Origin: a virus
DNA: 64,000 bases
Virus record (IMG/VR): IMGVR_UViG_3300045988_177920
Location: 30,051 to 94,050 of that record
Direction: 5' to 3' (one strand)
Within the stretch, counting starts at the first letter, position 1, and each line of letters begins with the position of its first letter. This document shows, one piece after another, positions 1-64,000 of the stretch. Both the position numbers and the translations under genes were made by a program. The notes beneath the pieces are model-generated. The model saw nothing but the letters and a program-made list of their open reading frames with translations, had not been told where the DNA came from and made no database searches.

Positions 1-3000
1 AAAAAAGCAAAGAAGGAGAATGAGAAAGCAAAGAAAAAGAAGAAAAAAGAAGAATTAGAACAAGCCGAATAGGAGAAACAATAGGAAAAACAAAATCTAA
101 AAACAGCTCGTACCTTTATCTATAATAAAATAATTACAAGTAGAAAGCTCAATGATTAGCAAAGAAAGGACCTTACAAAGGTATTTGATGAATCTCAAGT
201 AGGACATGAAACTGAGGAAAGCCTTTTATAGACATTAAGAAATCAAGCAAATAAACTTATTTCTGATAATGAAGAAGGTACTGCAGAAGCATCTAATGGG
301 CAGGCTATTCTAGATATTTTAGATTCTTATGATGATTATAAAGAATCTAGAAAAATCTAGGAAAAAGCTAATCAAAAAGAGGAAGTAAAAAAATCATTAG
401 CTAGAAGAGTTTTAGAGAAAATAAGTGGCAGTTTAAGACAAGCATAGATTGATACAATGTTGGATAAAGAGGAAGATGCCGTTGATATAAATAATAGAAG
501 ATGGCTAACTACTCAAGATGATTTTGTTGAAATCTCGAGATTGGCCAATTCCTCTACAATGGTGGGGCTGTCCATGGAAGAATATATTAATTCAGGAAAT
601 GCCTCTCCATCAATGCAACAATATTGGGAGGATAATGAGGTCACAAAATATCTATAGGAACATTCTGATGCTATTCATGGTAAGACTATATATTTCTATT
701 CTCCTAGTGCTATTACAGAGCGTAGAAAAAATAATATTGAAGAGCTGGATGCTCCATTAGTTGCTATTATTGAAGATGAAAATGGTAAAGTAGTACTTGA
801 AACAAAAGACGGTCCTAAACATTTTTAGCCTATAGCTATAATGCCAAGTTCTTTTAATTCTACATTAAGTGCTGCAAGAAATACTAAAATGAAGGTTGGA
901 AATTCCTATGGAATAGGAAGGTCTTTTTATATAAGAAGGAATATTAAAGGTACTGATCAAATTATATAGGATGAAAACGGTAAAAATATTACTAGTGTTA
1001 TTAAGAAAATTTCTTCAACAAGACGTGTAATATCTTTAGGCTCTAATTATACTCCTTCCTCAAATAGAGTTGTTAAAGAGTTATAGTTAAAAGATCCTAA
1101 GTTTGAAAATAAAACTATAAGAGAAATCATGAAAAGTCCCGAATATTTAAAGGCCAGACGTGATTTTATTGATAGTTATGTTAGAAAGTATCCTACAGGA
1201 GAGGAAACCACTGATTAGATAAAAGCTATGTAGGCCCGTTCATTTAGAAATGAAGGTGGGGTAGATGAAGGATTACATGATTTTACCAGAATAGATGAAG
1301 CTAGAAGCAAATATACTGATAAATCTCTGGCTGAAGTTGTTGAAGCAATATTAAATGATCCTGAAGCTAATTATGATCAGTTATATGCAGGATAGGATGC
1401 AGAAGATGGATTTAATAGTAGAGCCACCTATATAGGGAAAAGGATTCAAGAAACATTTAAAAATGTTTTTAAGTTCAACTCTTTATTAGGTATGAGTTAG
1501 ACTCAATAGCAAGAGAAACTTCAAGAATATGAGAAAGCACTTACTAGAGCATTTGTAAATGCAAATGGTATATTCTTTAATCCAACTTTATATTCTTTTA
1601 AAATTTTAGTATAGGAAGTTGGAGAAGGAGAAAATAAAAAAGCATAGGCTACAATCTTTCTTATAAATAACTCTAAACAACAAAGTAAAGTTTTAGCTAC
1701 AGTAGAAGAGGGTGAAATATCAGATAAAGATACTGCCAAATTAATGGCGAATTTCTTTTATAATGGAGGCTATTTAAACAGTGAAGGAAAGGAAGTAAAA
1801 ACTCCTGAAGGAACTGAAGCCAAACCATTAATTGAGGGAGTAAATTGGCAGTTAGATGATAAGGAATTAGCTCCTTTTGCAGCAGGATATACAGCAAAAG
1901 ATAAGAAAGAAATAGATCATGCTAGAAGTTATTTAGCACGTGCTTACGATGATGGCCTTTTAGGAGAAAGAGATAATAAGATTGAAGTTAATGTTTCTTC
2001 AGTATAGTTAATGGCTCCTGAGGGCAGTGATAAAATACAGCAAGATACTTCTATAAAAGTAACAAATAAAGATAATGCAGAATCTAATTCAACCAGTTCA
2101 AATGCAGCGTCTACAAAGAATGGTTTAGTAGATTCTGATACAGGAGCTTCATTGGATGGGCATAACTCTTAGTAGGAAGAAGCAAGATAGTTACGTGAAT
2201 AGCAAAAAGCATAGTAGGCTTTTGAAGCATTAAAAGAAGAGGCTAAAAATTGGGCACTTTCAGAGAGTCGAAAATTCTATGAAAGAAATGGTAGTAATCC
2301 ACATGCAAGAGTTACTTCAGTAATTGCAGCAGATAGGTTTGCTGAAAGAGATAAAGATGGTAAACCTAAAAGATTTGATGAAGAAAGTTCTTGGGCAATC
2401 CCTAGTTCAGCAGTTGGTAATGCTGTTGATGCATTTTTAAGAGATGTTTTTGAAGGAGTATATGATGGTTTATCCGAAACATAGCTTCAAGAAAAATTAT
2501 CTAAACTCCCAATTGCTCAATATTCAGAGTGGAGAAATCTGTATAATTATGTTTCAAATTTTAGGGATAATCTTATTAGAAATGGTTATCATTTTGAATC
2601 TATTGGCTTTACTGTAAATGGTATACTTCCTGTATATCAAAATGGTAAGCAGATAGGAACACTTCCTGTAGCAGGAACATTGGATTTAATAGCTTATGAT
2701 GCAGAAGGTAATATTATTATATTTGATTTTAAAACTCATCATAATTCTAATATATCAGAACTTAAAGGTAAATGGGCGAGACAAACTTCTGTATATAAAA
2801 CTTTAATACAACAGTTTTTAGAATCTAAAGGTATTTAGGCTAATTTTGCAAAAAATAGTTTAAAGATTTTCCATATACATTCTGACTATGATACTGCTAA
2901 AACTAATAGCTATAAGATAGCATAGAATGGTACTTTAATTTATAGACAAAATGAAAGTACTCCGTATACTGAATATAAATCTACTAGGTTTAAAGAGGCT

Positions 3001-3441
3001 GGGGAAATAAGTATAGCTGAAGTAGCTTCATCAATTTAGTTTGATGATTTATTAGAAGAAGAAAAGGCATTAGTTAAAAGAGATGATAATGAACCTCCAT
3101 CACCTCCATCACCTCCAAAAGGCCCTGAAAATAACGGTCCTGAAAATACCGGACCTCAAAATACCTCTAATACTGAAAATACAGAAGAAACACCAAAAAC
3201 AACTTCAAGTAGAAGAGGAAGAGGAATGGTTAAAAAACAAAGAGGAGGTTATGCAACTACAAATGCTTTAAATGACCATGTAAGTCTTGAAATAGGAACA
3301 TAGATTTCCGGTGAAGGAACTGAAAAAATGAAACAAGAAGCACAAGAAAAGCAAGAAAAGATAAAAAAACTTGGAATAAATGAAGAGGCGTTTTGTTAGT
3401 TAAGTAAGGCATCACAAGAACAATTAATGGGATGTGCATAA
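1..3441 (+). CDS. Large virion-associated protein, 5'-partial (>1146 codons), TAG read as sense; C-terminal PD-(D/E)XK nuclease-like domain
   Basis: Frame 1 is open from nt 1 to TAA 3439-3441 if TAG is read through. Every interruption I translated (841-2340, 3061-3441) is TAG, never TAA or TGA. Track ORFs 457-657 and 1744-2007 lie in this frame. GTLDLIAYD ... IIIFDFKT ... RQTSVYKTL (about 2671-2820) fits the D / (D/E)xK / QxxxY pattern of RecB/Cas4-type nucleases. Confidence 0.7.
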
Positions 3442-3442
3442 A

Positions 3443-3481
3443 TAATAAAGGCGAGAGTTATTAACCCTCGCCTTTACTTTT
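3443..3481. terminator. Bidirectional intrinsic terminator between convergent late genes
   Basis: GGCGAG (3450-3455) pairs with CTCGCC (3467-3472). The 5' flank is A-rich and the 3' flank is T-rich (TTTACTTTTTT). It lies between the stops at 3441 (+) and 3491 (-). Confidence 0.55.
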
Positions 3482-3490
3482 TTATAATTA

Positions 3491-6400
3491 TTATCTTAAA
3501 GTTGCAAACATATATGAATCATAAGCATCTGATGCATTATACATAGTATAGATAGAACGTAAAAATGGAGCTATCTTTATAAGTTTTTTTGTTAATTTAG
3601 CATCATATTTTTTATATGGCTATTCGCTTTTAGTATAAAAAACATCTCCATATAGATCATTTAAACCATCTAATTTAAAAATTCTATTCTCTAACATATA
3701 CTATAAAACTTCTAAATCATCTTTGAATATAGAGTTATAGACTTTACTAGGGTTATCTGTGAGATCAGATATTAAGTTTTCTATAACAGTTTGTTTACTA
3801 GGTTTATTTTTATCAAAACTGTTTATATGATCCTCAAGATGCTATTCAAATATCTATACTTGATCTCTCCAATGTCTCTAATCTCCCATCCAATCAAAAG
3901 TTCGAAGAGTAGTTCCTAGAATCTCACCAATCTATAATATCATAGCTGGAGCAATCATTCCACTTCCCACATTTTCCAGGCCTTTAAATTCTCTTCTAGT
4001 AGGTGAAGTTTTATCAAACCAAACAAATATATCATTAAAAGCACTATTATCATTAGCAACTCTTCCCAATAAATATTTTAAGCAAGCTCTTGTATCAATA
4101 GGTCTATCGTCATAATATTTATTTATACCCCTCATTTCATTAGAGCGAATCTTTTTAAGCCTTTCTACATTCTGTTTAGTTCCAAATCTTTCAAGAAGAG
4201 TTTTTTCACTACATAGTGTTCTTTTTTCAGGATGGTTTGAATCTTTTACTTCAGTAAATAGAAAGTCTGTTATTCTGACAAATTTTTTTCCTGATAGACC
4301 TTTAAAATTTGGTAATCTATTTTCATCATATGCTTCTCTTGCTTCTTTAATTGCTTCTTTTAAACGCTTGTTTTTTATCACATCATTATTTAAAAAGTTC
4401 CAAGGATTACTATAAGTTAAATCATAATAAGGATCGTCTTCCGGCGGCTATTGTAAGCAACCAACTATTGAATTAAGAATAACTGCTACGGTATAATCAC
4501 CAATAGTTCTTTTTATATTAGAGTATGCTTTCTTACAAAATCCTTCTTTAATAAGCATATTAGTTCCTAATTCCTATAGGTAATTTTTATCAGTAACATG
4601 TGTCTTATATAAAAGAGAGCTAATATATCCTCCTCCATATACATCTAGCATTCCTAAAATAGTGGCACCTATAAATTTAAAGAAGGTTCTAGGACTAGTT
4701 ATAAAAGATGTTATTCCTTTAAATGAAGTAACTAAACTTCCTTCAACAACACCTCCAAATCCATCTTCACTCTTTTCATATATATTAAAACTGCTATCTG
4801 TAAAGCGTCTATGTACTAAACCAAAAACATATCCTTTCATATGTGCCCACAAAGCACCCCAGACAGTTTGTTGAAAGGCATTTGCACTATCAGCATCATA
4901 CATACCATGCATATTATTAAGTACACTACGCATATATGTTTTAAATTGAGCAATATCATTTATCCCCCATTTTAACTATTCCATAGTAAAGTTGGTATAT
5001 TTAAGGAGCTCTTCTGCTTGTTTTCTTGTAAGCTCCACTGTATATTTTCCACGTATTGGAGATTCTTGTATATCTAATTTACGTAAAAAATCACCGCTAT
5101 GTTCTCGTATCAATGCCAACTGGTCGTCAGAAATAGTAAAATATGTAGTTCCTGTAAGGTCAGATTTTAGATAATCAGTTATATCAGATTTAAGATCATT
5201 TACTTTATTATAATTATCTGCATCCTACTAATTTCTAAAGTAAGGTTCATCAGTCATATTTATTGTATTAACACTATCACCCACTTTATAAGATGCCTTT
5301 TTAATAGTCCATTTAAACAAACTTAATTTATCACCATTTACATCATATATAAAGTTATTACGAAGCATTGCTATTGCAGGTATCATATTCATAGCAAAAT
5401 TACCTACTGCCATTCCTGCATATAAAGATTTCATTATTAAAGTATCAACAGAAGGAATATTCTATGTATTCCATTTTTTAGCTTCTTCCTCAGCAGTTGT
5501 GGATATTTCCCAAAATCTATTCAATAGATGTAACTATGTGCTATTAAATTTCGTGGAGGACGCAGCATTTAATACAGGTATACTTAACCCTACAGACGCA
5601 GCAGTATTACTAATATTCATTGTACTAAATATTCCTAAAGCCTCTAATAAATCTATCTAAGTGAAGTTTTCATGTGCTCCAGCTTCTTTAGCCATTTCAA
5701 CTAGACCGTCAGATAAACTCACTGCAGCAACAGCCAGATTGCCTCCAAGTGCTGCTATACCTGTAATTTTATTTACACTATGTAAAGCGTTCTAAATGGT
5801 TTTTGTTCCACCTCCAAATAATGCATTCATTACTTTATTTTTAAACACTTTAGTATCTTTTACTACAATTCTAGTTAAAAATGGATGTTGATATACTTGT
5901 CTATCTAAGAATGAGGCAAATCTTTTATAAAATCTAGGAGTTTGCATATGTTCTTCTAAATCTTCATTTTTTATACCTGTTCCGGTATTGCGTTCCTAAA
6001 CTAAATAATCTAATTTAGGATTTATTTTTTCTTTATCATAATTAGCATCCCGTCTTATTATAAGCTTAGCTCCATTTATAATAGACTGTGTAAACCCCCC
6101 AATTTTCCTCTTTTTTAGTACTCCTCGACCTATTTCTAAAGCATGTATAATCTTTTCTTTTGCAGCATATTTATAGGCCATATTTCCATACATAGCAAGA
6201 CCATTCCAAATATCTGTAGAAAATTGGGTATAATTCTTTACCTTTTTTACTCCATATATAGGAAGTCTGTCAAGTTTCATATAATCATCATAGTATGGAT
6301 TTTTTACTATTTGAATATCACTATCTGTAGCATGCATATCACTTCCAAAATCCCCTTCAGTTGCATTCATTACAAAAGCTGCACCACAAGCATTTAATCC

Positions 6401-8830
6401 TGCTAAAATTGCTTTTCCACCTTTTTTAAAAATATTATCATTTCCAATAAAGGCATTACCCATTCTATGGAATAAGCTGGTTTTAAATTGAGGGGCTCTA
6501 TAAGAGACAGTACTTCCACTAGGGAGGTTTTTATCTATTTCTCTTTTTAATTGTTTAATTTCAAACAATAACTATTCTTTTTCAGACAATTCTCCCTCAT
6601 ATCCTTTTGAAATTATTTTTGTATACAAGGCATTATAATCTAATTCTTTAGTATACCCGAATTTTTCTAGATATGCTTTATTAATATATTCATCTTTTAA
6701 AATCCAAATTTGTTTACCACCAGGTAATTCTTTATGATAATGTGTTTTCTTTAAAAACTCACGTCTTGCACTTGCAAATTCTACAGAAAACTTTATAGCT
6801 AAGTCTCTTTCATCATAATAATCCTTATACTTCTCTTTAAACTTTTTTTGAAATTCTAATTTCATGGATTGGTATTCTCTTTCATATTTACCATAATCAT
6901 ATATATCTAGAAAATTCCCGGTATAATGCCCCTATTCATCTTTTTCATAAAATTCATCATTACGCATACCAATGGAATCAGCACGCTTTTTTAATGCTCT
7001 AAGCTAGTCGTGTAATTGTATGGTTTTAATTGCAGCCTGTGTTTCAGCGGCTTTATATGCCTTATACACAATCTAGTTTAAAACATCTGAAGAATTATAC
7101 ATAGCTCCTATCCACTATCCGAAATAAGTACCATCTTCACTAATTGCTTCTAAAAGCTATGAAATTTTAACATCCTATTCAGGAACAACAACTTGTTTAG
7201 CTCCTTTAAATATTCTCTACTAGGCCATATGTATATAATCTTTTCCATAAAGCCCCTCTAAAAACTTACAATAATAGTCTCTTGCAATGCCGTGAATGTA
7301 TCTCTCCAAATTTATTTTTGAATTTTCTTTAGCTGTACTATAACCAACCAATTCCGCTAAATTATCATATAATGTACTTAGTTGTTGTGTGTATTTATTA
7401 CCTTCTTCATCATAAGCTACACGTTCTTTATATTCAGATCTTTTGTTTCTATCTCCTATAAAGTTTTTCAAAATAACCATACACTCTAAGATTGCTTTTA
7501 CAGTATCTCTATACTATCTAATTGTTTGACCATCTTGAGTAAAATTATTCCAATAATCTGTGTTGTTTTCCATATGTGCTTTTACAACAGAAAGATTTCT
7601 CCTAATAGGTTCTACTTGAACAATTAATCTTTCAATAAGAGTAAACAAGCCATTAACCGCCTATTTACGCATAATCATATCAATATTAGAGTAATCTTTA
7701 GACCCCTATACAACAATACTTTTTATTGCCTCAGCAGCTTCAGCATTATATGTAGAAAGTAAATCAGACAGTCCCATCAAAGAATTTCTAACACCCTCAA
7801 AAGCTTGTGCTACCGCATGTTTTTCTATATCATAAAATGTTTCTTTGGTCTCCAATGCCTGTTCAACAGTTCCTTCAAAATCTTCATCATTTAAAAAGCT
7901 TTCAGCAATTTTATTTGCGCTATTTAGAGCTTCTGTTTTTAATGCTAAGACTTCATTAAAAGTAATTTTTGCAAATATTCGTTTAGCTACATATGCGATT
8001 CTATTTGCTAATTTATCCCAAGCTGTATTACTGCTAAGCTTATTTATAAGTGCTTGTCCTACTAAATATCCAGCAGTTTCTCTTCTTGGCTATGCTCCTA
8101 AATTTTTATTTTCTAATTCGTCTCCAAAAATTCTATTAATAACGTCTGAATTTAATAACTATTCTAATCGTTGTACTAATCTAGATTCGCCCAAAGAACC
8201 TATAATAAAGTGCCCGGCTTCTTCTGCTAACACTCCTCCAACATTTTTACCGTCTCTAATGGCAATTAAAGCCTACAGACCATTTACAACTCTATCAGAT
8301 TCTAATGTACTGTATCTTCCTTCAAATTGTGAGTGATCTACAAATTCATATGTTACTCCATGCTGATTAAGTTTAGCCTAAAGTTTTTCAGCAAGAGTTC
8401 CGCTTTTAAGCTGTTTATATAAATCCTTTGTAGTTTTATCTGTTTTCTCAGTTATAAATAACCGCACTTTCCCCCCTTCTGTTCTTTGAATTGTTGCAAG
8501 GTATTTATCATTATAATTAGAGTTTTTATTAAAGTTAAATAACTTTTCACAAGCCTCTTTATATGTCATTTCTCCTGCACCTATCTAATTATTAAGGGTC
8601 TCCTTTATCTTTTCATTATATTCTGTTGTATTAGCAGCTTTTAACAAGGAGGAGAATGTTGGTTCCCCCTCCTCGTTTAAAACTATTTCATTAGCAGAAG
8701 CCTCTAAAAATCTACTATCATGAGCAACATTATACCAATATTTTATAAGTTCTCTATTTTCTTTACCCACAACAGCTTCTATTTCATCCCATAGTTGGTG
8801 CTTATCAGGTTTAAGTATACAAAATCCCAT
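3491..8830 (-). CDS. Giant virion (possibly ejected cargo) protein, about 1779 codons, TAG read as sense
   Basis: Eight track ORFs (3932-4381 through 8585-8839) share one minus frame (end coordinate mod 3 = 1). ATG is at 8830 and TAA at 3491-3493. The start lies 2 nt after the stop of the upstream giant gene. The translated text is protein-like across the TAG positions. Confidence 0.7.
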
Positions 8831-8832
8831 AA

Positions 8833-11800
8833 TTAACAAAGTTTTTTACTAATAGTGCCATCCTCATTTACTTCATAGCACTCTTTTTTATTTTTAATAT
8901 CATTTAAAATTTTACGTTTACCTTCTTCACTAGAAGTTTCATAAAAATCTCTAAGCTAATCATCCATTCTATCTATAATGGATTTTTCATATAAAGAATT
9001 ATAAGAAACAGGTTTAATAATATCAGAATCATCAAATTGTCCAATTAAATCAGAATTTTGAATTAATTGTTCACCTTGTTTTAAGGTTCCTTTATCTACT
9101 CTATCTTCACTAAATCCTGCTTTCTAAGGAATACTTCTTATATATGTCATTGGAATACTTGGGTCATCGGTTTTATTAAATCCCTAATTACTACCGCTAT
9201 CACAGATATATAAATAATCAATTTCATCTATATTTATTGTAAATGCCGGAACATAGCCTTTATCTTGAGATATAAAGAGCGGATTATTTACTTCTTCATT
9301 ATTAACAATTAATGAAGTATTAACCTATATTTCTTTCTATGCATAACCGGTATTACCTTTAATTATTCGTTTTATTGCATTATAGTTATTATCATTTTCA
9401 TATATCTATTTTACAAATCTCCTATTATCGCTATGTCGCAATATATAGAACTACGCTATATTATCCTTTGTTTGCTATAATCCGATCTTATCAAAATTAT
9501 CATTCATCATACTATAAAGCCAATCTCTATATGATTGCCTGTTTCCAGTAGCTTTATTTATAGTCATTGTTAGATTTGCAGTTATAATCTAAGGTAAATA
9601 AGGAGTAAAACTTTTTGGACCAAAGCCTCTTTCATTCTAAAAATAATCATACATATAAAGATCTTCAATAAACCATCTGGTATTTTCATCTTTATATAGA
9701 TTTTCAAATAATGCTATTATGTCTTTTTTATCAAAATCTAAATTTGCGGAGCCTTTAAGACCAATACTATACCAATGTCTTGTTAATCCCATTGCAGTTG
9801 TTTCAGAGTGGGGTTCTATTGATATTAAACCATTTTCTTTTAGCAGCTTAAGGGTCTATATTATAGGCTCCTAATTATATTCATAATCTGAAGTATTTAA
9901 AATTATATCAGGAAATTCATATTTATAATAGTATTCCTAGGACATTATCTGTCCATTTCTTTCTATAAGAGTGTCTTTGTTAAATCTACTCTATGGAATA
10001 TTTTCCATCATATATACCATTATGTCTTTAAGTATACCATTAACCGTATCCTCATCCATAGCATAATTAGCCATATCTGCCAGATTCTATATAACACCTT
10101 CATATAAATTATTTTTATATGGAAAGTATTTACACATTTTATTTAACGACTTCCTATTCATATCAAACATTGCCTATTCATAAGCAAATGGACTAAAATC
10201 TATAGAACGTAGATAACTCCAGTTATCTGTATTTATATCAGACATACCAATAAAATAATTTGAATCTTCTGATGAATCAGTAATAACCATAGTGGTTTTA
10301 TTTTTTTTCTTCTTTTGTCTAATAGCTAAATCATCTAAGTATCTTTTAACTCTATACTGCTATGCAATCATACTACCAAAAGATACTGCAACAGCATTAC
10401 TTGCTGTAAATTTAGTATTAGTAACAAACTCAGAAACCTCTCTAGTAACATCTAAAATTTCCTAAAATAACTTTAATACAGATAGTTGCCCAATAATAAA
10501 ATCTGCCTGTTCAGATTTATTTCCAGCAATTGTTCTAGTATCTATGTTATTTGAGTTTTTAGCACTGTTTATAACAATATTAGTAGCCAGTCTATTAGCA
10601 TTTAAGTACTGAGATTCTTTTCCTGTAGCTCTAAACCCACTAAATCTTTTGTCATTTAAAAGGTAATTTAATGCACTGGAAGTAGTTCTTCCCTCATTTG
10701 CAGAAATTTGGCAAAGTTCCTTTATTATAGGCTAATTTAATAATAATCCTATTTCTGTAGTAGAATAACCTAATCTTGCTAATACTGCAGCTGCATCTGC
10801 AGTAGTTTCATTAAGATTCAAATAATTTAATACCGGATCTTTTACAGCATCTACAGATGCAGCGAGCAACTCAGCGCAAGTTTTTTTAGCATTAGGAGAG
10901 TGGATTAAATCTTTAAGTCCATCCATGTGATTACCGAAAGCAATGGGGCTATTAAGCTCATATTTATGTAACATTGAGGATATGGCATAGTTAACATTTT
11001 GGTTTGCAAATATACCAATCAGTTTACTAGCTACCTAATTTTGTTCATTATAGATTAATTCTGTTAAAGGATCTGTATAATCATAATTAGGTTTTGGATC
11101 AGGTGTATTATCAACACTTTCCTCTATTTTTCTAAAATTTAACTCGCGTTCATCAACAACATAATCATCAAAAGACTTCTAAGATAAAGTTAATATACGC
11201 ATTATTTTAGCAGATCTTTTTGCTCCATTAAATTCACCAGGTTGAAATCTTTCATTAAGAGTTTCAGGGTCTTCAAGTCGTCGCATAATAAGATCCATAA
11301 GCATATTATTTCTTGCGACTCTATTATTACCCTTCATAAATTTACCATTTTCATCATAACTATCCATAACTCTTTGATTAGAATTATAACGATAATTCTA
11401 TTTACGTACTATTTTTACCTATTTCTCTAATGGTGCAATCTCTCCTTGATTTATTAAATCAGATAATGCATTACTAAAGATTTCATTCTTATCATAATTG
11501 CTCTTTAAATAATCATTTTCACCCCAATAAGAATTTAATGACTTTTTATGTATCTTTTCTTTATTTGCAGGATTTTCTTCCCACTATTTTTTTGTCTGCT
11601 CCAGATGGGTTTTAATTGAAGGATTATCCTTATAAATTTTAGCCCATACTGCATTCTTTTCTTCTTCAGATAGATTTTCATCTTCACTTTCATAATACTA
11701 TGTAAATGCGAATTGTTTACGCATTAAGTATAGTTTGTCAATATCAAAGTCAAATCCTGCTGTTGTAGTGCCTTGAGCAGGAACTCTGATAACACCGCCT

Positions 11801-53726: not shown

Positions 53727-53731
53727 TATAT

Positions 53732-53769: not shown

Positions 53770-53777
53770 ATATATAT

Positions 53778-54677: not shown

Positions 54678-54778
54678 AACTAATAAATTTTATAGGTAGT
54701 AATATTAAATAGTGTTAAAATACTTGCGTAATTAAAATATTATGCTTTACTTTGTAGCGTCTTAATACTATGATTAAG

Positions 54779-54850: not shown

Positions 54851-54930
54851 CATACGGTGGAAAGATGTTTAATTGTTGTTAAATTGTACAATAACCTCCC
54901 TTAATCTGAGAAGACGGAAGGAGGGAGCTT

Positions 54931-54995
54931 GGTTCCTTAGTATAATGGTATTACTCCTGAAAGGGAAGATAGTAGTTCAAATCTACTAGGAACCA
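54931..54995 (+). tRNA. tRNA-like element with truncated anticodon arm (65 nt)
   Basis: Perfect acceptor GGUUCCU/AGGAACC, a D arm containing AAUGG, and T arm AGUAG-UUCAAAU-CUACU. In place of a 17-nt anticodon arm there is only UCCU-GAAA-GGGA (4 bp plus a GNRA-type tetraloop). Confidence 0.4.
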
Positions 54996-55010
54996 CAAAA
55001 AATAAATATT

Positions 55011-55244
55011 ATGAGTTGGTTTACAGAAAGCAATAGAAATAAACATTTCTTTTATGCAATACCTGCAGGATTTATAGGCACAATATTATTTGTACTTGGT
55101 TTGGCAATAGGAATGGAATTTAAGGATAAACAGTATGGAAATAAATTCGATGAACTGGATATTTTAATGACATTAGCAGGTGGTGTAATAGGACAATTTT
55201 TAGCAGTTGCTTTTTATATACTAATATATAAATATGTTATTTAA
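55011..55244 (+). CDS. Small two-TM membrane protein (holin-like by architecture)
   Basis: 77 aa with two hydrophobic helices (FFYAIPAGFIGTILFVLGLAIG and LAGGVIGQFLAVAFYILIY). Wedged between tRNA genes. Confidence 0.5.
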   Translation: MSWFTESNRNKHFFYAIPAGFIGTILFVLGLAIGMEFKDKQYGNKFDELDILMTLAGGVIGQFLAVAFYILIYKYVI

Positions 55245-55248
55245 TTAA

Positions 55249-55319
55249 TGCCCTATAGTGTAACAGTAGCACGCAGGTCTCTAAAATCTTCAGTCTCAGT
55301 GCAAGTCTGAGTGGGGCGA
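55249..55319 (+). tRNA. Amber suppressor tRNA (anticodon CUA), probably Gln-accepting
   Basis: Hand fold: acceptor UGCCCUA/UGGGGCG, D arm GUGU-AACAGUA-GCAC, anticodon arm CAGGU-CUCUAAA-AUCUU (C-U mismatch at the top; U33, CUA at 55281-55283, A37), and T arm CUCAG-UGCAAGU-CUGAG. Confidence 0.8.
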
Positions 55320-55335
55320 CTAAAAAACTTTTATT

Positions 55336-55518
55336 ATGGAACAAACTATTCTTGATAACTTTAATAAGCCTAGTATTGAATACTTAAAACATGCTATGTT
55401 GGCTATACTGGATGATCTCAATTTTATAGATAAAGTCGTAGAAATACACTCACTTGGAAATGAATAGTTTGTACTAAACTTTTATGATGAACTTAATAAA
55501 ATAAGTGTAAAAAGATGA
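55336..55518 (+). CDS. Small hypothetical protein with one in-frame TAG (first recoded ORF)
   Basis: ATG is at 55336 and the in-frame TAG at 55465-55467. The frame continues to TGA 55516-55518, which overlaps the next ATG (ATGA). Confidence 0.5.
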
Positions 55519-55697
55519 AGGTAGATAAAAAATGGCAAGCTGAAAGCGATGCTCATACATTAGCACAATACCAGGAAATTATGAGTAGTCCTAGTAGAAA
55601 AAATGCTGCTATTAAAGCTGCTAAGGCACAAGCTGCAGCATTGGAAAGAAGAGCTAATGCTATGAAAATGGCTTCTGGTGGTAAAATAAAAAAATAA
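55515..55697 (+). CDS. Hypothetical protein
   Basis: Intact track ORF. Confidence 0.6.
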   Translation: MKVDKKWQAESDAHTLAQYQEIMSSPSRKNAAIKAAKAQAAALERRANAMKMASGGKIKK

Positions 55698-55870
55698 TGG
55701 AACCTATGATTAAAGATGGAAAAGTTATGACTGCTATTTCTGCTGCTAATATTCGATAGTTGGTAACGAAAGCAAATAACTTAAATGTGAAAAGAGAAGA
55801 CATAGTATCTTTAGTCAAGGAGAATGGTAGTTTTATATTAGTATACTATAGAGATGAAGGAGCCGATTGA
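55697..55870 (+). CDS. Small hypothetical protein with one in-frame TAG
   Basis: ATG overlaps the upstream TAA (TAATG). The in-frame TAG is at 55757-55759 and the TGA at 55868-55870. Confidence 0.5.
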
Positions 55871-56084
55871 TACTTTAGAATTTAAAGAGCCTACAAAGTA
55901 TGATGAGGAACCTGTTGTATACTGTAAAAAATGCTTATCCTTAAGGATACTTAGAATGGGCTTGGATGATCTTGTATATTGTGACAATTGTGGTGGAACA
56001 GATACAGGAGAATTAAATATTAAAGAGTGGGAAACTCTTTATAAAAATAAATATGGATTTAAATATTTAAATAATACTTTATAA
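55854..56084 (+). CDS. Zinc-ribbon protein
   Basis: CKKC ... CDNCG forms two CxxC pairs. Confidence 0.6.
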   Translation: MKEPIDTLEFKEPTKYDEEPVVYCKKCLSLRILRMGLDDLVYCDNCGGTDTGELNIKEWETLYKNKYGFKYLNNTL

Positions 56085-56087
56085 GCA

Positions 56088-56345
56088 ATGGAAGATAATA
56101 AAGAAGTAAAGGAGCTTACGTATGATCAACTCAAAGAAGTAGTAACACAGCTCCAGCATGATAACGATCTGTTATATGCAAGACTACAGCAGTTTGGAGC
56201 AACTACAATATTTAAACGTCTCGATTACCTATTTAAGGTAATAGAAAATGAAACAAGCTTTGAAAAAAACTTTGTAGACAGATGTGTTAATGAAGTAGTT
56301 GAAATAATGACTCCTGCTAAAGAAGAACCTCAAACAGAAGAATAA
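56088..56345 (+). CDS. Hypothetical protein
   Basis: Intact track ORF. Confidence 0.6.
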   Translation: MEDNKEVKELTYDQLKEVVTQLQHDNDLLYARLQQFGATTIFKRLDYLFKVIENETSFEKNFVDRCVNEVVEIMTPAKEEPQTEE

Positions 56346-56346
56346 T

Positions 56347-56730
56347 ATGCTTGGGAAAATTAACAACGTTGTTAGGATTCCCACCACAAAAGAAAAATTT
56401 TTTAAATATTGGTTTGAGTTTCTTAAGCCTTTTCATAATCTCACAAATAGAGAGATTGAAGTAATTTCCTCATTTGTAAAACACAGGTATAAACTAAGCC
56501 TTAATATTACAAGTGAGGAATTACTTAATAAGGTATTAATGAGTGAAGAGACTAAAAAATCTGTAAGAGAGGATTGTGGAATAACAAGCTCTCATTTTCA
56601 AGTTATTATGTCAAAGCTCAGGGAGAAAAAAATCATTATAGATGATAAAATAAATCCTAAATTCATACCAAATATTACAAAAGATGAGGGTAATTTTAAG
56701 TTTATGTTATTATTTGATTTTATAGAATGA
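56347..56730 (+). CDS. Hypothetical protein (possible winged-helix DNA binder)
   Basis: Track ORF. The functional hint comes only from the helix-turn-helix-like segment GITSSHFQVIMSKLREKKII. Confidence 0.55.
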   Translation: MLGKINNVVRIPTTKEKFFKYWFEFLKPFHNLTNREIEVISSFVKHRYKLSLNITSEELLNKVLMSEETKKSVREDCGITSSHFQVIMSKLREKKIIIDDKINPKFIPNITKDEGNFKFMLLFDFIE

Positions 56731-56969
56731 CTATAGAAGAAATAGCAAAAGAGTTAGATTTACCGATTAATGTGGTGGAGAAAACCTATAAAGCCTTTTG
56801 GCTATGTATTAGAAAACATATAGAGAGTCTGCCTTTGAAAGAAGATTTAACAGAGGAAGAGTTCTCTAAATTAACTACTAGTTTTAATATTCCATCATTA
56901 GGTAAGTTGGCGTGCCCTTATGATAAATATAAAAGAATAAAAGCGTATGTTGACAGTAAAAAAAATTAA
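56727..56969 (+). CDS. Hypothetical protein with N-terminal HTH-like segment
   Basis: Track ORF containing IEEIAKELDLPINVVEKTY. Confidence 0.55.
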   Translation: MTIEEIAKELDLPINVVEKTYKAFWLCIRKHIESLPLKEDLTEEEFSKLTTSFNIPSLGKLACPYDKYKRIKAYVDSKKN

Positions 56970-57357
56970 ACCTATGTTTACTGCCCTTGTTACAACAATG
57001 GATGTATATGAAGAAGATGGTAAAATAGGTAATATTATAGATGTAACAAAAAAAGCAGGTACAGTAAAAGAATATCAAACAGTTTTAGCTATTGGAGACT
57101 CTGTTAGAGGAATTAAAGTTGGGGATTTAGTATCAATAAATCCTAATAGATTCGCAGTTAAGAAACACAAAGACGGAAGTCTTAAAGATGGTATTATTTC
57201 AGATAATCCTGTTATTGAATATAGATTTGATATTGTTATAATTGATAATAAACCCTGTTTATTATTACAAGACAGAGACATAGAATTTGTAGTAGAAGAA
57301 TGGGAGGAAACTGAGGATACCTCAATTATCCATCCTAATAAAGACATTATTCTTTAA
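56947..57357 (+). CDS. GroES/gp31-like co-chaperonin (tentative)
   Basis: KKIKPMFTALV ... TVLAIGDSVRGIKVGDLVSIN follows the Cpn10 pattern (IKPL..rVLV ... G.VvAvG ... vkvGD.V). Confidence 0.45.
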   Translation: MLTVKKIKPMFTALVTTMDVYEEDGKIGNIIDVTKKAGTVKEYQTVLAIGDSVRGIKVGDLVSINPNRFAVKKHKDGSLKDGIISDNPVIEYRFDIVIIDNKPCLLLQDRDIEFVVEEWEETEDTSIIHPNKDIIL

Positions 57358-57362
57358 AGGAC

Positions 57363-57390
57363 AAAGCCTCTCAATCGAGAGGCTTTTTTA
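57363..57390 (+). terminator. Intrinsic terminator
   Basis: AAGCCTCTC (57364-57372) pairs with GAGAGGCTT (57377-57385) around loop AATC, then TTTTTT. Confidence 0.8.
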
Positions 57391-57402
57391 ATTTAGACAG
57401 AT

Positions 57403-57951
57403 ATGAAATTATTTAAATATGATGCATATAAAATAGTTATCTCAGAAGAGGCATTATTGCTTAAACCATTTAAACAGATATGGGTAAGAGATAAAACTAG
57501 TGGTAAAAGTAAAGCACTTTAGGAATTAGCATATATCTATTTTATGTGTGATCCTAGAAGTGATTATCAGTATATTATTGACCCTAAAGAGCGTGCAAAA
57601 GCAGTTATAGAAGGAGAAGGTTTAAAAGATTGGAAGCCCGATAAACAAGTTCAAGAAGCTATGTAGTTTTATGAATCATTTAAATCCCCCTCCGCACTTC
57701 TTCTCGAAGATACTCGTGTTGCTGTGGATAAAGTCAGAACGTTCCTTAGAGATGTTGATTTGAATGCACTGGATGATAAAGGAAAGCCTGTTTACACTAT
57801 AAATAGTATAACATCTACTATTAAAATGATTCCTTAGTTAGTTAAAGACCTTGCAGATGCTGAAAAAGCAATTACAACTGAAATGATCAGTTCTGGAAAA
57901 ATGCGAGGTTCTGGTGAGAAAAAATTATTTGAAGATGGAATTAACATTTAA
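57403..57951 (+). CDS. Hypothetical late protein (182 codons, three in-frame TAG); small terminase subunit possible by position only
   Basis: ATG is at 57403 and TAA at 57949-57951. The frame is interrupted only by TAG. It lies immediately upstream of terL. Confidence 0.55.
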
Positions 57952-58219
57952 TGAAATAATAAACACTATAGGGAAAGCAATTGGCAAAAACCTTGTTGTT
58001 AGAAAAACTGTAGAAGCACATTCTACAATGAAAATTATTAAAACTTTTACAGGAGAATTATATGAGATAAATAAAGGTAAAGGTGAACTTATAGAAAGGT
58101 TTACTAAAACAGATAAAGTAGCAACAGCTTCCTTAGAAAGTTTTCAAAAAAAATTTGATTTGTATATAATACAAGAAATAGTAAAATTAGTATTAAATGG
58201 AGAACTTTCAATTAAATAA
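57935..58219 (+). CDS. Hypothetical protein
   Basis: Track ORF 57914-58219 trimmed to ATG 57935. It overlaps both neighbours. Confidence 0.45.
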   Translation: MELTFNEIINTIGKAIGKNLVVRKTVEAHSTMKIIKTFTGELYEINKGKGELIERFTKTDKVATASLESFQKKFDLYIIQEIVKLVLNGELSIK

Positions 58220-61200
58220 ATATCAGACCCCTATAACTCAAGAATTACTTGATTCTATGAATGAGGAGATTAAGGAACAATTTTTTGATTATATTAATAA
58301 TGTTCCTTATATAAAAAGACTGATTTCTTCTAATAGACCTTACGCTAAAGATCTTCCTAGAGATAGCGAAGGTAAAATTATTATTGATATAACAAAGCCT
58401 CATATATTAGAAGATACCGATTATTTCAGACCTACAGCAATACATTTTTAGAAAACAGGAAGACTTACAGATTTAAAACCTAATGCTAATCCTAACAGTG
58501 AATTTGGAAAGTGGATTAGGGAAGAAATAAGAAGATGTTATGAAGGATATGTAAGACCCTCAGACGGTGAATGGATTACAGGAGATATGTATTTCTTTTT
58601 GAATTATTGTCCTATGCAACTTATTAAGAAAGATGCAAAGGGTAAAACTATCCGTTCTGTAGGAATGCCTTTATTCTGGGAAGGGCACTATTATAAATTT
58701 CATTTTTTACAATAGTGTAGAGATAGTGGGCATCATTATATGGAATTATCAAGACGTGGTTGTGGTAAATCATTTTGTGGGGCATCTTTATTGGCAAAAA
58801 GATTTATATTAGGAGAAGGATATGAAGTAAATAAAAAAGTACAATGTGTTGTAACAGCTTCAGAAAGAAAATATATACAAGGCGCTAATTAGATTCTTGA
58901 TATGTTTTAGTATTATATAGATTTCTGTGCTAGTAACACATAGTTTCCATCTAGAAGATTAACCTCTAGTCTTTAGAATATGCAATGGACTATGGGTTAT
59001 TTAGATGTTGAAACAGGAGTTAGAATGGGCACAGAAAACAGTGTTATGGGTATTACATCTAAAGATGATGAATCTAAACTTAGAGGTTCTAGAGGGGTAT
59101 TATATATAATCGAGGAGAGCGGTTGCCACTTAAAAGGTACTAAAGTTATGTTATATAATGGCACTTTTAAGAATGTAGAAGATGTTACTACAGAGGATCT
59201 TCTTATGGGAGATGATGGAACTTCTAGAAAAGTTTTAGAATTATATTCAGGAATTGATGATATGTATAAAATAACATTATCAAATGGTGATACATAGATA
59301 GTCAATAGTAGACATCCAATATATTTTAAAAGCTATAATTGGAATACCAAGAAGTACACAGAACATTTAATGACTGCTCCTTAGATTATGTAGATTAAAG
59401 ATCTAAATAAAGGTAATTATATCTATAAGTCAGATAAAGTAGCTTTTCCCTATAAAAAGCTTAAAATTGACCCTTATTGGATAGGACTTTGGTTAGGCGA
59501 TGGGGACAAAACAAGAATGGCAGTAAGTAATGAAGATCCTGAAGTATTAGATTGGTTAGAGACATATTGTATGACAAATTGTCTTAGATACTCAAAACGA
59601 TATTTAAAACAATCTAAGAAATGTTATAATCTAAATATCTCATCTAAAAATGCTTTATTTAAAGAGTTTGTTTCTCTAAATTTAAAGAACAATAAGCACT
59701 TACCTGACATATATAAATATAATTCCAAAGAGGTGTTGTTAAATATACTTGCAGGTGTTATAGATACTGATGGGACTTTAAATAGAAAGAAACAGTACTA
59801 TGAAATAACACAAGTTTATAAAAATAAACAGATTATAGATGATATTGCTTATATTTCTAGAGTATTGGGATTTAGAGTAACTATAACTACAAAAGTTGCA
59901 TGCCAAACAGCTAAAGGTGCAGGACATTTAAATTATAGACTACGAATATCGGGAGATATAGACAAGATTCCTGTTAAAATAGAAAGAAAAAAAATAATCA
60001 AGAGACATACTGCAAGAAATAGAAGAAATTGGAATGAATATACTTTTAAAGTAGAACCTTGTGGAAAGGGAGAGTATTATGGATTTACTATAGATAAAAA
60101 TCATTTATTCTTACTAGACGATTTCACAATAACCCATAATACATTTCCTAGACTATTAAATTTATGGTAGGTATTAAGACCTTCTGTAGAAGATGGTGAT
60201 AGTGTATGGGGAATTATTGCTGCTTGGGGTACGGCAGGTGATAATGATTCTGATTTTAGTTCTATGCAAGAACTTATGTATAATCCTAAAGGATATAATG
60301 TTTTGGGAATTAATAATATTTATGATAAAGAAGGTTAGGGTAGAAAATAGTTTACATACTTCTTTCCAGGGTACTTAAACAGAGCTGACTGTTATGATAA
60401 AGATGGTAATAGTGATGTTATTAAAGCATTAGTACAGATACTAAAAGATAGGTATCTTGTTAAATATAATTCAACCAATATTAATGCCATTACTAAACGT
60501 ATTGCAGAAATCCCCATAACTCCATAGGAAGCTATTCAAAGAGCTAAAGGTAATATATTTCCTATAACAGAATTGACAGCAAGATTAAATGAAATTGATG
60601 GTAATCCCAACTTTTATGATGATACTTATGTAGGTAATCTCATATTCAATAAGAAACACGAAGTAGAATTTTAGCCTAGTTATGATAAACCTATTAGAGA
60701 CTTTCCTTTAAAAGATAATAAAAGTACTGGTGCTTTAGAGATATTTGAAATGCCGCAGGAGGTGTAGGGAAGAATACCACAAGATAGATATATAGCATCT
60801 TTAGATAATTATGAAAATGATGAGTCTAATACTATGTCATTGGGGTCTTTATTTGTAATGGATTTATGGACAGATAAAATAGTTGCAGAATATACAGGAA
60901 GACCAATGTTTGTAGATGATTTAAATGAGATAGCTAGAAAAGTTTGTCTGTTCTATAATTGTTAGTTACTCTATGAAAGTAATAAGAAAAACACTTTTTC
61001 ATATTTTAGTAGAACTAATAGTTTGTATATGTTAGCAGACACTCCCGAATATTTAAGAAATAAACAGCTTATAAAATCCTCTAATTTCGGTAATTCAAGT
61101 AAAGGAGTTTAGGCAACTGTACCTATTAAAAATTTTGGTTTAACCTTAATTAGGGATTGGCTATTAAAGCCTGTAACTATAAATGAAGAGTAGGATGGCC

Positions 61201-61451
61201 ATGAAGTATCTTATACTGTTCCTAATTTATCTTTTATAAAAAATAGGGCTCTGTTAAAAGAACTTATTTTATTTAATCCTGATATAAATGTTGATAGATT
61301 AATGTCTCTAATTCAACTTATGCTCTTTAGAGAAGAAAAAATGATTTTATATCAAGGTGATATGAGGAGAGCTTAGGCAAAACCAAAGGGATTAGAAATG
61401 GACCCATTCTTTGAAAAAAACTATAGATAGTTTAAACTTAATACTTTATAA
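58197..61451 (+). CDS. terL: Terminase large subunit, TAG-recoded, interrupted by an intein
   Basis: A single frame (start mod 3 = 0) links track ORFs 58197, 58980 and 59517 and continues to TAA 61449-61451 with only TAG interruptions. Walker A SRRGCGKSF, Walker B-like VLYIIEE, and downstream WGTAGD are present. Confidence 0.8.
59124..60140 (+). mobile_element. Intein (339 codons) with LAGLIDADG homing endonuclease, in-frame in terL
   Basis: It starts with Cys (EESG/CHLKGTKV), contains LGLWLGDGD and LAGVIDTDG, and ends in THN followed by Thr (60141). Three in-frame TAGs lie inside it, at 59295, 59382 and 59391. Confidence 0.8.
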
Positions 61452-61474
61452 TAGTTAATAAAATAATTATTATG

Positions 61475-61505
61475 TTGTGTAATTGTTTATTATATGATAC
61501 CTTTG
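61475..61505 (+). promoter_or_regulatory. Bacteroidota-type promoter upstream of the portal gene
   Basis: TTG (61475-61477) is followed after 20 nt by TACCTTTG (61498-61505), 25 nt before ATG 61531. Confidence 0.4.
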
Positions 61506-61530
61506 TACAAAATTTAAAGTTGAAAGATAT

Positions 61531-63936
61531 ATGAGTAATTTTGTTAAATTACCACCACAATAGTTACCATTTAATAGGAAAAATAAAAAATGGAGAAAAC
61601 TACATTGTGATTGGGCAGACTCTAAAACATTTTTCAACTATTCACCTGTTAGGAACAGTGTTATTCATAAGAAGATTAATTATGATTTAATTAATGGCAA
61701 ACTTCATATGAGTGACCTTATGATGATATTAAATCCTGAACATCTTTAGGCAGGATTTATTCCTGATAAAATACAACACTATCCTATCATGAATAGCAAA
61801 TTAGATGTTCTGAGAGGCGAAGAATCTGCCAGAGTTTTTGATTATAGAGTTATTATAACAAATCCAAATTCAATATCTGAAATAGAGAACAATAAAAGAG
61901 ACCAAATCTATCAAGAACTTCAAAAAGCTGTTTAGGACACCTCTTCTTCTGATGAAGAGTTTAATCAACGTATTTAGTAGATGGGGGATTACTTTTCATT
62001 AGAATGGTAGGATATAAGAGAAATAAGAGCCAATTCATTGCTTCATCACTATATTAAAGAACTTAATATGCCCCTAATATTTAATTAGGGATTTATGGAT
62101 GGAATGACTGTTGGTGAAGAAATCTATCAATGTGATATAGTAGGAGGAGAGCCTGTTATTGAAAGAATAAATCCTTTAAATATAAGAGCTTTTAGGTCAG
62201 GATATTCTAATAGATTAGAAGATGCAGACATTATAATTCTTGAGGATTATTGGAGTCCTGGTAAAATCATTGATACATATTATGATGTATTAACAGAAAA
62301 GGATAGAAAGTATATTGAATAGATGCCTGATAATTTAGGATAGGGGTCTACTGATTCTATGGATAATATAGATGAAAGATATGGCTTTATAAATGGATCT
62401 ATGTTAGGAGAAACATTTAATTCATAGACAGACTTTTTTTCTAATATTACAGGAGAACTTGATGGAGTTAATGACTCCCTTCTTCCTTTTGATATGAATG
62501 GTAATATAAGAGTTCTCAGAGTATATTGGAAATCTAGAAGAAAGATTAAAAAGGTTAAATCTTATGATCCTGAAACCGGAGAAGAAGTATTTAATTTTTA
62601 TCCTGAAACTTATATAACAAAAACAGAAGAAGGAGAGGAAGAAACAGTTTTTTATATAAATGAAGCTTGGGAAGGTACTAAAATAGGAACTGATATATAT
62701 GTAAATATGCGTCCTAGAGTAGTATAGTATAACAGATTAAGTAATCCTTCAAGATGTCATTTTGGTATTATAGGATCTATATATAATCTTAATGATTCTA
62801 AGCCGTTTTCTTTAGTAGATAAAATGAAATCATATAATTATTTATATGATGTTATTCATGACAGACTAAATAAACTCCTTGCTAGAAACTGGGGTGTTTT
62901 AGTAAATCTTGATTTAGCTAAAGTTCCTACAGGATGGGATATTGAAAAATGGATGTATTTTGCTAAGACTTCAGGTATAGTTGTTACTGATAGTTTTAAG
63001 GAAGGCAATTCAGGCGCTTCTATGGGCAAACTTTCAGGGGCATTAAATAATGCACAACAAGGGGCTTTTAATGCTGATGTTGGTAATACTATTCAGTAGT
63101 ATGTAAATCTTCTTGAATATATTAAACAGGAGATGACTGATGTTTCAGGTATTTCTAGACAGAGAGAAGGTTAGATTAGTAATAGAGAAACTGTTGGTGG
63201 AGTAGAAAGAGCCACACTTCAATCATCACATATTACAGAATGGCTCTTTATGGTACATGATGATGTTAAAAAAAGAGCATTAGAGTGTTTCCTTGAAACT
63301 GCAAAAATAGCATTAAAAGGTAGAAGTAAAAAGTTTCAGTATTTACTTGCAGATAATACACTTAAAGTTACTGAAATTGATGGTGATGAATTTGCTGAAT
63401 CTGACTATGGTCTTGTTGTTGATAACAGTGACGGTATGCAAGAGCTTAAATAGAAACTTGATATGCTTGCATAGGCAGCTTTACAAAATCAAGCTCTTAA
63501 CTTCTCTACTATTATGAAATTATATAATAGTACTTCTCTTGCTGAAAAACAAAGAATGGTTGAAAAGAATGAGTAGGATATGTTGTAGAGAGCATAGGAA
63601 CAACAACAATAGCAACAAGAATTAGCACAATAGCAGCTACAATAGTAGGCTTAGTAGAAATAGGCAGAAATGGAACTTAAAGACTCTATAAACCAAAGAG
63701 ATAATGAAACCAGAATACTTGTTGCTGAAATAAATGCTGAATCTATGGCTAATCAAAATTTCTATAAAGAAGATCCTGAACAGGCTAAAGCCGAATTAGC
63801 TGAAAAAGTTAGACAATTTAATTCTAAATAGGAATTAGAGAAAGATAAACTGGCCGAGACTAAAAGAAAAAATAAAGCTGACGAGGCTTTAAAATTAAAA
63901 TAGATAAATAAACCAAATAATACTAGTAGCAAATGA
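61531..63936 (+). CDS. Probable portal protein (801 codons), TAG-recoded
   Basis: One frame (mod 3 = 1) links track ORFs 62095, 62494, 62824 and 63250. I translated most of it and found only TAG interruptions, ending at TGA 63934-63936. The call rests on size and position directly after terL. Confidence 0.6.
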
Positions 63937-64000
63937 TTAAATATAAAGATATAGTATATTCAAAGAATGCCCCAAAGGAACATAATGTTTTATGGATAAA
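63933..64000 (+). CDS. Hypothetical late protein, 3'-partial
   Basis: The ATG overlaps the portal TGA (ATGA). The translation MIKYKDIVYSKNAPKEHNVLWIK runs off the window. Confidence 0.4.
   Translation, partial: MIKYKDIVYSKNAPKEHNVLWI

Follow-up and report, generated by a model that had tools for sequence, protein, structure and literature searches.

Reassignment of the TAG codon from stop to glutamine has been described in some detail for crAss-like phages. In the beta-group of these phages, TAG is translated as glutamine in late genes, suppressor tRNAs are encoded and inteins occur in combination with recoding (Yutin et al. 2021, PMC7886860). Recoding has been modelled as a form of late-gene regulation, with an early block that is compatible with both codes (Borges et al. 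2021/22, bioRxiv 10.1101/2021.08.26.457843), and metaproteomic data from two crAss-like phages have confirmed that TAG is read as glutamine (Peters et al. 2022, PMC9523058). Theta ribozymes, which resemble that of hepatitis delta virus (HDV), adjoin phage suppressor tRNAs (Kienbeck et al. 2024, PMC10879173), and Mgcod was built to annotate block-wise dual coding. Here we analyse a stretch of 64,000 nucleotides (nt) of viral DNA (IMG/VR record IMGVR_UViG_3300045988_177920, positions 30,051 to 94,050; hereafter the window), in which late genes with in-frame TAG flank a TAG-free block of early genes and an amber-suppressor tRNA gene, tRNA(CUA), lies at a boundary between the two. With a probability of roughly 90%, we propose that this phage switches UAG from stop to glutamine in the course of infection by means of its own suppressor tRNA.

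Results

In-frame TAG is confined to the late genes

Analysis of the window with TAA and TGA as the only stops revealed five long open frames, at 1-3441, 58197-61451 and 61498-63936 on the plus strand and at 3491-8845 and 8833-16548 on the minus strand. These frames contain 30, 20 and 27 TAG codons on the plus strand and 33 and 56 on the minus strand, respectively, and end in TAA, except for 61498-63936, which ends in TGA. When starts were assigned, the 15 late genes at 1-16539 and 55336-63936 showed 172 TAG, no TAA and no TGA among 8,344 in-frame codons, despite off-frame densities in the same genes of 30 TAG, 59 TAA and 35 TGA per 1,000. In contrast, the 11,592 codons of the 71 gene models between these flanks include not a single in-frame TAG (Fisher p = 3e-66 versus the late genes). 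Coding density, measured as the share of sequence within stop-free stretches of at least 100 codons, rose from 37% under the standard code to 99.7% with TAG as sense at 1-16548 and from 34% to 85% at 55336-64000, compared to a change from 76% to 80% at 16549-55335. The large terminase TerL, the portal protein and the giant genes align across their TAGs to their counterparts in crAss001, DAC15 and cr128_1, and the early homologs (DNA polymerase, primase, helicase and others) align over their full length under the standard code.

These results agree with the claims of a first-pass annotation, made from the sequence alone, that the long late genes are open only if TAG is translated, that TAG is their sole interruption with TAA or TGA as the end, and that the genes between 16.7 and 55.3 kb are intact under the standard code. 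The same annotation held that the genes at 55336-64000 need TAG as sense, which is the case for TerL and portal but was too broad for the ten small genes upstream of them, only four of which contain TAG.

Under the standard code the flanks break into pieces of no more than 258 codons, as might be seen with pseudogenes, independent short genes or assembly errors. However, TAA and TGA are absent from the late frames, homologs align full length across the TAGs, the late proteins are 96-97% identical to those of a relative (L007) at 88% DNA identity, and an identical contig as well as dozens of near-identical contigs came from independent samples. The probability that the late frames are decayed, fragmented or misassembled is thus vanishingly small. 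Both of the tests that the first-pass annotation had set for its claim came out in its favour.

TAG behaves as a glutamine codon

Comparison with L007, a close relative that is likewise recoded (88% nucleotide identity overall, 96-97% identity for the TerL and portal proteins), provided a view of what TAG encodes. Within TerL, portal and one small gene, TAG was opposite TAG in 25 codon pairs and was exchanged with CAA or CAG in 35, compared to three exchanges with GAA, one with TTA and none with TAA or TGA; from this exchange pattern TAG appears to act as a synonymous glutamine codon. The standard-code homologs from crAss001, DAC15 and cr128_1 pointed in the same direction. Glutamine made up 22.7% of the residues opposite TAG, compared to 35.4% opposite the CAA and CAG codons of the window and at most 6.4% opposite codons for any other amino acid. 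The BLOSUM62 sum at TAG positions was highest for glutamine (307, versus 157 for glutamate), and 11 of the 18 TAG columns in which all three homologs agreed were glutamine. TAG accounts for 43-48% of glutamine codons in each of the five large genes and for about 45% overall, and counting it raises the glutamine content of the late genes from 2.6% to 4.6%. Together, these comparisons indicate that TAG specifies glutamine in the virion, packaging and virion RNA polymerase genes, as the first-pass annotation had suggested for late genes.

A suppressor tRNA gene forms the plus-strand code boundary

Inspection of the plus-strand boundary revealed a gene for tRNA(CUA), which was missing from the first-pass annotation. 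The gene heads the late operon and forms the code boundary on this strand. A TAG-free open reading frame (ORF) of 77 codons ends 4 nt upstream of it and the first late ORF begins 15 nt downstream; neither gap contains a terminator. Its product has the anticodon loop CUCUAAA, a U1-G72 pair and discriminator A, and the CCA end is not encoded. A tRNA(CUA) gene is found at the same location in L007 (4737-4810) and also in L076, another recoded relative. The CUCUAA loop, U1-G72 and discriminator A do not vary among these three phages, and compensatory changes, with both sides altered and pairing kept, affect 10 of 20 stem pairs. Because of the invariant loop and the compensatory stem changes, tRNA(CUA) is predicted with confidence to function as a tRNA and to be maintained by selection.

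Clear recoding was seen in three of 80 portal relatives (L007, L076 and L083), with 18-22 in-frame TAGs in portal; suppressor tRNAs were seen in L007 and L076, and the fragmentary loci L078 and L079 are not assignable to a code. Patchy recoding among close relatives (3 of 80 clear cases) fits the published distribution.

In published surveys, no suppressor tRNA could be detected in many of the recoded phages (PMC7886860; bioRxiv 10.1101/2021.08.26.457843), which raises the question of whether the host supplies the reassignment, either by itself reading TAG as glutamine or through its own suppressor, with the phage tRNA as an accessory. This seems extremely improbable, given that a tRNA(CUA) of conserved structure is encoded by the window phage and by its recoded relatives, and that early genes would have no reason to avoid TAG if the host itself read it as glutamine. 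Moreover, the relatives in culture have Bacteroides as their host, a genus with the standard code.

We also looked for genes and RNA elements that might accompany the suppressor. A search of ten ORFs without assigned function for code-change genes (Pfam, PHROGs) returned only NrdD, an HNH endonuclease and weak hits, and the ORFs at 52426-55244 beside tRNA(CUA) gave no Pfam or PHROG match to a release factor or tRNA synthetase. No theta or HDV-like ribozyme was found by any tRNA of the window, either in Rfam or in a permissive HDV-like motif scan, the window-wide hits of which were only modestly above those in shuffled sequence. Immediately 3' of tRNA(CUA) there is no room for such a ribozyme, because just 15 nt separate the tRNA from the ATG of the next ORF.

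The early block is readable under either code

TAG ends 5 of the 71 early genes (7%), compared to 13-18% of genes in crAss001, DAC15 and cr128_1 (binomial p = 0.035), and all five TAG stops are backed by TAA or TGA 1-34 codons further on. Three of these genes are well grounded, namely the last early gene, the replicative helicase and the homolog of crAss001 gp94 (Table 1), and the remaining two lie inside a GC-richer island that is replaced in a relative. The first-pass annotation had described TAG as a stop in early and replication genes; the three well-grounded genes support this usage, but TAG stops are rare, every one of them is backed and the block mostly avoids TAG. A more fitting description of the early block is that it can be read with either code.

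This arrangement bears on the possibility that a single code operates, with TAG read as glutamine throughout infection and scarce in early genes by chance or mutational history. Consistent with such a code, 66 of the 71 early genes have TAG neither in frame nor as their stop, and constant suppression would be tolerable with every TAG stop backed within 34 codons. Nevertheless, TAG makes up 172 of 386 late glutamine codons and none of 323 early ones, which excludes chance, and the boundary is sharp and kept in a relative. At least three conserved early genes stop at TAG, one of them exactly at the homologous C-terminus, and the avoidance of TAG implies a phase in which it is unreadable as sense. 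A uniform code is therefore very unlikely.

The GC-richer island spans 50100-51800, with 40-50% G+C versus 31% overall, and its two TAG-ending ORFs have no assigned function. It is followed by a stretch of 15% G+C (51800-52100). A good match to a Bacteroidetes-type promoter (TTTG, 20 nt, TAACTTTG at 52088) faces the plus-strand genes. No known RNA family was matched in the structured parts of the GC-rich 51.3-52.4 kb region in a search of Rfam.

A conserved hairpin marks the minus-strand code boundary

For the minus strand, the first-pass annotation had placed the code switch at a terminator and promoter pair. A strong hairpin followed by a U-run, resembling an intrinsic terminator, indeed follows the last TAG-free gene and precedes the first recoded one on this strand (Table 1). 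The intergenic region is about 95% identical in a relative (L087), compared to about 74-83% for the flanking genes there, and this conservation above the level of the flanking genes supports a function. A sigma-70 and simple terminator scan of 16.3-17.0 kb was uninformative and missed the hairpin. The proposed promoter, TAAATTTG, is conserved in L087 as TAATTTTG. However, because the motif TAnnTTTG is not enriched in the window (46-50 occurrences per strand found versus about 55 expected), the putative promoter at this position is a consensus match only. Thus, the terminator half of the proposed pair is upheld by a strong and conserved hairpin, but the promoter half stays a candidate.

The window derives from a crAss-like phage

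Profile searches and gene order place the window within the crAss-like phages, in agreement with a guess made in the first-pass annotation. The window (30.8% G+C) covers roughly two thirds of the genome of a crAss-like (Steigviridae-like) gut phage; the major capsid gene and the lysis cassette belong to the third or so of the genome that lies outside it. In searches with PHROG profiles, TerL matched phrog_6681 (E = 7.5e-93) and portal matched phrog_6547 (E = 2.6e-139), the latter covering profile positions 8-810 of 827 across all 27 TAGs. Portal is 64-69% identical to that of crAss001, DAC15, cr128_1, IAS virus and other Steigviridae, and the Crassvirales signature genes present include a crAss-type TerL, portal and a giant virion RNA polymerase with the DxDxD motif. 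The best GenBank phage match to the TerL-portal region had 74% nucleotide identity, so that the lineage was not among the records searched. Positions 51011-59244 are 100% identical to an ENA contig (ERZ28595906 scaffold_199, 93 kb), the proteins of the window fall in clusters with 45-58 public members, and the lineage occurs in no fewer than 116 blocks of the public collection. TerL already appears with 1,084 residues in public gene calls, showing that TAG is read through there.

The order of genes is that of crAss001 and DAC15 (Table 1). At the left end, a gp47-like gene, the product of which is 27% identical to a region of DAC15 gp078, faces the gp49-like and gp50-like genes on the opposite strand. 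The gp50-like protein carries the motif DFDID and matches the phi14:2 RNA polymerase (PDB 6VR4, E = 4.6e-11); because of the motif and this match to a virion RNA polymerase, the two giant minus-strand genes are assigned to virion proteins even though they are oriented like early genes. A search for related loci with the N-terminus of the gp50-like protein gave no match, and one with a central fragment did give matches. The minus-strand replication block encodes ThyX, DNA polymerase I, dUTPase, NrdD, a PD-(D/E)XK exonuclease, primase, helicase and an HKD nuclease. From a divergent non-coding region at about 51.6-52.4 kb, a plus-strand series runs through three ORFs without assigned function, tRNAs and the ten small genes to TerL and portal.

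Table 1. Features of the window, with coordinates counted from its first nucleotide
Feature	Position	Strand	Remarks
gp47-like giant virion-type protein, C-terminal 1,146 codons	1-3441	+	30 TAG; ends TAA; position of crAss001 gp47 / DAC15 gp078
gp49-like giant protein, 1,779 codons	3491-8830	-	33 TAG, no TAA or TGA; ends TAA; homologs DAC15 gp077, crAss001 gp49, cr128_1
gp50-like crAss-type virion RNA polymerase, 2,568 codons	8833-16539	-	56 TAG, the first at codon 16; ends TAA
Putative promoter element TAAATTTG	16569-16562	-	fits Bacteroidetes -7 box TAnnTTTG; 22 nt upstream of gp50-like ATG (16539)
Hairpin and U-run, intrinsic-terminator-like	16676-16625	-	-32.5 kcal/mol, z = -5.3
Early/replication block, 71 gene models	16689-55244	both	no in-frame TAG; stops 43 TAA, 23 TGA, 5 TAG
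Last early gene	16689-16865	-	ends TAG, TAA 5 codons on; TAG stop kept in L087
Replicative helicase	38891-40069	-	ends TAG, TAA one codon on
crAss001 gp94 homolog	41802-42191	-	ends TAG within a codon of gp94 end; TAA 12 codons on
tRNA-like sequence	43180-43249	-	42 bits; anticodon arm of 7 bp with 3-nt loop; not called by ARAGORN
tRNA-like sequence	43472-43624	-	25 bits; insertions of 25 nt and 64 nt; not called by ARAGORN
tRNA-like element	54931-54995	+	46.6 bits, Rfam tRNA model
Amber-suppressor tRNA, anticodon CUA	55249-55320	+	called by ARAGORN ('Pyl' by default label); Rfam tRNA 45.4 bits
Ten small genes, head of late operon	55336-58219	+	4 of 10 contain 1-3 TAG (6 in total); all end TAA or TGA
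Large terminase TerL, 1,084 codons	58197-61451	+	20 TAG; ends TAA; includes intein
Hint/LAGLIDADG intein, in-frame, 339 residues (C...HN/T)	59124-60140	+	inside TerL; 3 TAG
Portal protein, 801 codons	61531-63936	+	27 TAG; ends TGA

tRNA-like elements and inteins

Four canonical tRNAs are encoded in the window, which also has no fewer than two degenerate tRNA-like elements plus a third that is weaker. The element that adjoins the suppressor tRNA (54931-54995) retains intact acceptor, D and T arms, and its anticodon arm is reduced to a 3-bp stem and a 6-nt loop. It is preceded by a conserved spacer of 79 nt with an 11-bp hairpin (from 54852). Element and spacer differ from those of L007 at 5 of 146 nt (97% identity versus a background of 88%, p = 0.0003), and the anticodon remnant is the sole variable part of the element across seven genomes. 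A scan of metagenomes for this element gave no match, and our guesses as to its role are a processing signal or a decoy. Since crAss001 and DAC15 carry 13-23 tRNAs, the lineage of the window may retain a decayed tRNA array.

TerL is interrupted by an in-frame intein that is also present in L116 and L120 and absent from L007, L117, L118, L119 and L121, where TerL has 745 residues; DAC15 carries an intein at the same TerL site that is 24% identical. The idea that the intein is TAG-free was rejected once exact boundaries were set, since TAG then made up 3 of its 8 glutamine codons, a share like that of the exteins (p = 0.70). In the close relative L087, the gene for the virion RNA polymerase is interrupted by an 890-bp insertion (11816-12701) with a TAG-free ORF of 220 codons, whereas the window has no break at the corresponding site (11745/11746); the insertion is probably an intron that encodes a homing endonuclease.

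An intron-like insert in the suppressor tRNA of sister strains

Two sister strains with flanks 97-99% identical to the window (L118 and L121, 4278-5278 in each) carry an insert of 1,001 nt that splits the suppressor tRNA between anticodon bases 2 and 3 (CUCU|AAA). The site corresponds to 55282|55283 of the window, which has the intron-less allele. The insert contains an ORF for an HNH endonuclease of 272 residues with no TAG among its 6 glutamine codons. Three further tRNA(CUA) genes, unrelated to that of the window and located on other gut phage contigs (MT835539.1 and, in IMG/VR, contigs of 94-151 kb), have homologous inserts of about 1 kb at the same site, and the loci with an insert comprise L118, L121, L122 (MT835539.1), L123 and L126-L129. 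In all four tRNA contexts the 5' exon ends in U and the insert ends in G, and removal of the insert in silico gives a tRNA(CUA) every time.

The 3' 175 nt of the insert can be folded into P2, P3, P4, P7 and P8 with a group-I topology, with pairing in all 238 cells and compensatory change in 14 of 30 pairs, compared to 35-50% pairing in slid controls. No P1 or guide sequence was identified, and the Rfam group I model gave no hit to the insert in three tries. The insert may be a group-I-like intron, a candidate with a core supported by covariation. A search of the open literature for such an insert found only short tRNA introns in Lak phages, and its presence in a suppressor tRNA gene may be new.

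If the insert is self-splicing, the suppressor-tRNA locus could be more than a passive tRNA gene, namely the target of a family of mobile introns with the anticodon loops of amber suppressors as their homing site, a tentative proposal that we rate somewhat below an even chance. Late-gene translation in insert-bearing strains would then depend on RNA splicing, and the code switch itself would become linked, through the intron family, to a selfish element and possibly to splicing, which could matter more than the recoding.

Discussion

A model for the code switch

We propose that the early and replication genes, being TAG-free, would be translatable by an unmodified host ribosome with active release factor 1 (RF1). 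A single tRNA with anticodon CUA, encoded at the head of the late operon, would then be made and charged with glutamine, presumably by the glutaminyl-tRNA synthetase (GlnRS) of the host. UAG would from then on be read as glutamine, as needed for the gp47-like and gp49-like proteins, the virion RNA polymerase, TerL and portal. Within this model, we infer both the out-competition of RF1 by the tRNA and the role of the arrangement, whether in timing or as a safeguard.

Several observations weigh against this model or narrow it. First, tRNA(CUA) probably shares a transcript with the mRNAs whose translation depends on it; this would weaken the timing mechanism implied in the first-pass annotation as a pure timer, and any delay may be short. 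Because tRNA(CUA) lies inside the late transcription unit, the arrangement may be a safeguard against leaky or premature translation rather than a clock. Second, the demand on suppression is high, in that a 50% yield of full-length product from the RNA polymerase gene, with its 56 TAGs, needs about 98.8% read-through per codon. Third, the identity of the tRNA is ambiguous: its best phage match is tRNA-Gln of DAC15, barely above tRNA-Lys and tRNA-Ile, and its sequence alone does not prove that it accepts glutamine. It also has G in place of U at T-loop position 55 and AG rather than GG in the D-loop. Fourth, Pfam and PHROG searches of the 64-kb window found no release factor, synthetase or other code-change gene. 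Of two ORFs without assigned function that lie just upstream of tRNA(CUA), p53154 is common to standard-code relatives and thus not specific to recoding, and p53778 (53778-54677, plus strand; 299 residues with an HExxH motif, HERTH) has only 43 residues in L007.

With respect to the unusual loop positions, the tRNA(CUA) of L007 is canonical (U55 and GG). G55 and the D-loop AG may be a linked change in the tertiary contact between D-loop and T-loop.

A different role for the suppressor has been proposed for crAss-like phages (PMC7886860), in which it mainly harms the host, through read-through of host TAG stops and disturbance of host and defence proteins, and recoding of late genes is secondary and neutral. 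The uniform TAG share of 43-48% would fit this role, as it resembles drift to equilibrium and not targeted placement. However, pure drift would put TAG in early genes too, unless these are translated before the tRNA acts. A temporal element would still be required, and host harm would complement rather than replace a switch of UAG from stop to glutamine during infection; as the principal explanation we consider it unlikely.

In practical terms, annotation of this genome needs TAG as glutamine at 1-16539 and 55336-64000 and the standard code between them; otherwise TerL, portal and three giant virion proteins, including the RNA polymerase, are lost as fragments. The window provides one more clean case of a phage that would rewrite the code of its host in mid-infection, and it sharpens the question of how near-complete read-through of UAG (56 sites in one gene) is reached in the presence of RF1 and with one tRNA gene in 64 kb.

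Comparison with known systems

The bacterial counterpart of such a switch is supE (glnV) of E. coli, a tRNA-Gln with a CUA anticodon that inserts glutamine at UAG in competition with RF1 and acts as a partial, tolerated, leaky suppressor. In contrast, the window phage needs near-complete read-through of up to 56 UAGs per gene, and its charging by GlnRS is assumed by analogy with supE.

Comparison with crAss001, DAC15 and cr128_1 revealed the same order of tRNA region, small genes, TerL and portal, the same gp47-like gene facing the gp49-like and gp50-like genes, and the same minus-strand replication block. In these three phages TAG acts solely as a stop, ending 13-18% of genes. The number of tRNAs varies, with 13-23 in crAss001 and DAC15, only 2 in cr128_1 and four canonical ones in the window.

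Published recoded phages and the window have in common early genes compatible with the standard code, structural genes that depend on a suppressor, low G+C content and few TAG stops. Of the 'code-change module' of phages, in which a suppressor tRNA is joined by a release factor, a tRNA synthetase or both, neither the release factor nor the synthetase was found within the 64 kb of the window. Similar to the phages of Kienbeck et al., the window comes from a recoded Bacteroidota gut phage with a tRNA(CUA) that lacks an encoded CCA, but it differs from them in that no ribozyme was found. For code-15 crAss-like phages there is peptide evidence (PMC9523058), whereas the assignment in the window draws on codon exchanges and homolog alignments only. 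In sum, block-wise recoding of TAG to glutamine is a correct description of this genome, and one that is already well established for the beta-group of crAss-like phages. With the beta-group (Steigviridae) phages of Yutin et al. the window shares late-only TAG read-through, a phage-encoded suppressor tRNA and the union of an intein and alternative coding in one gene, and in nothing essential does it differ from them.

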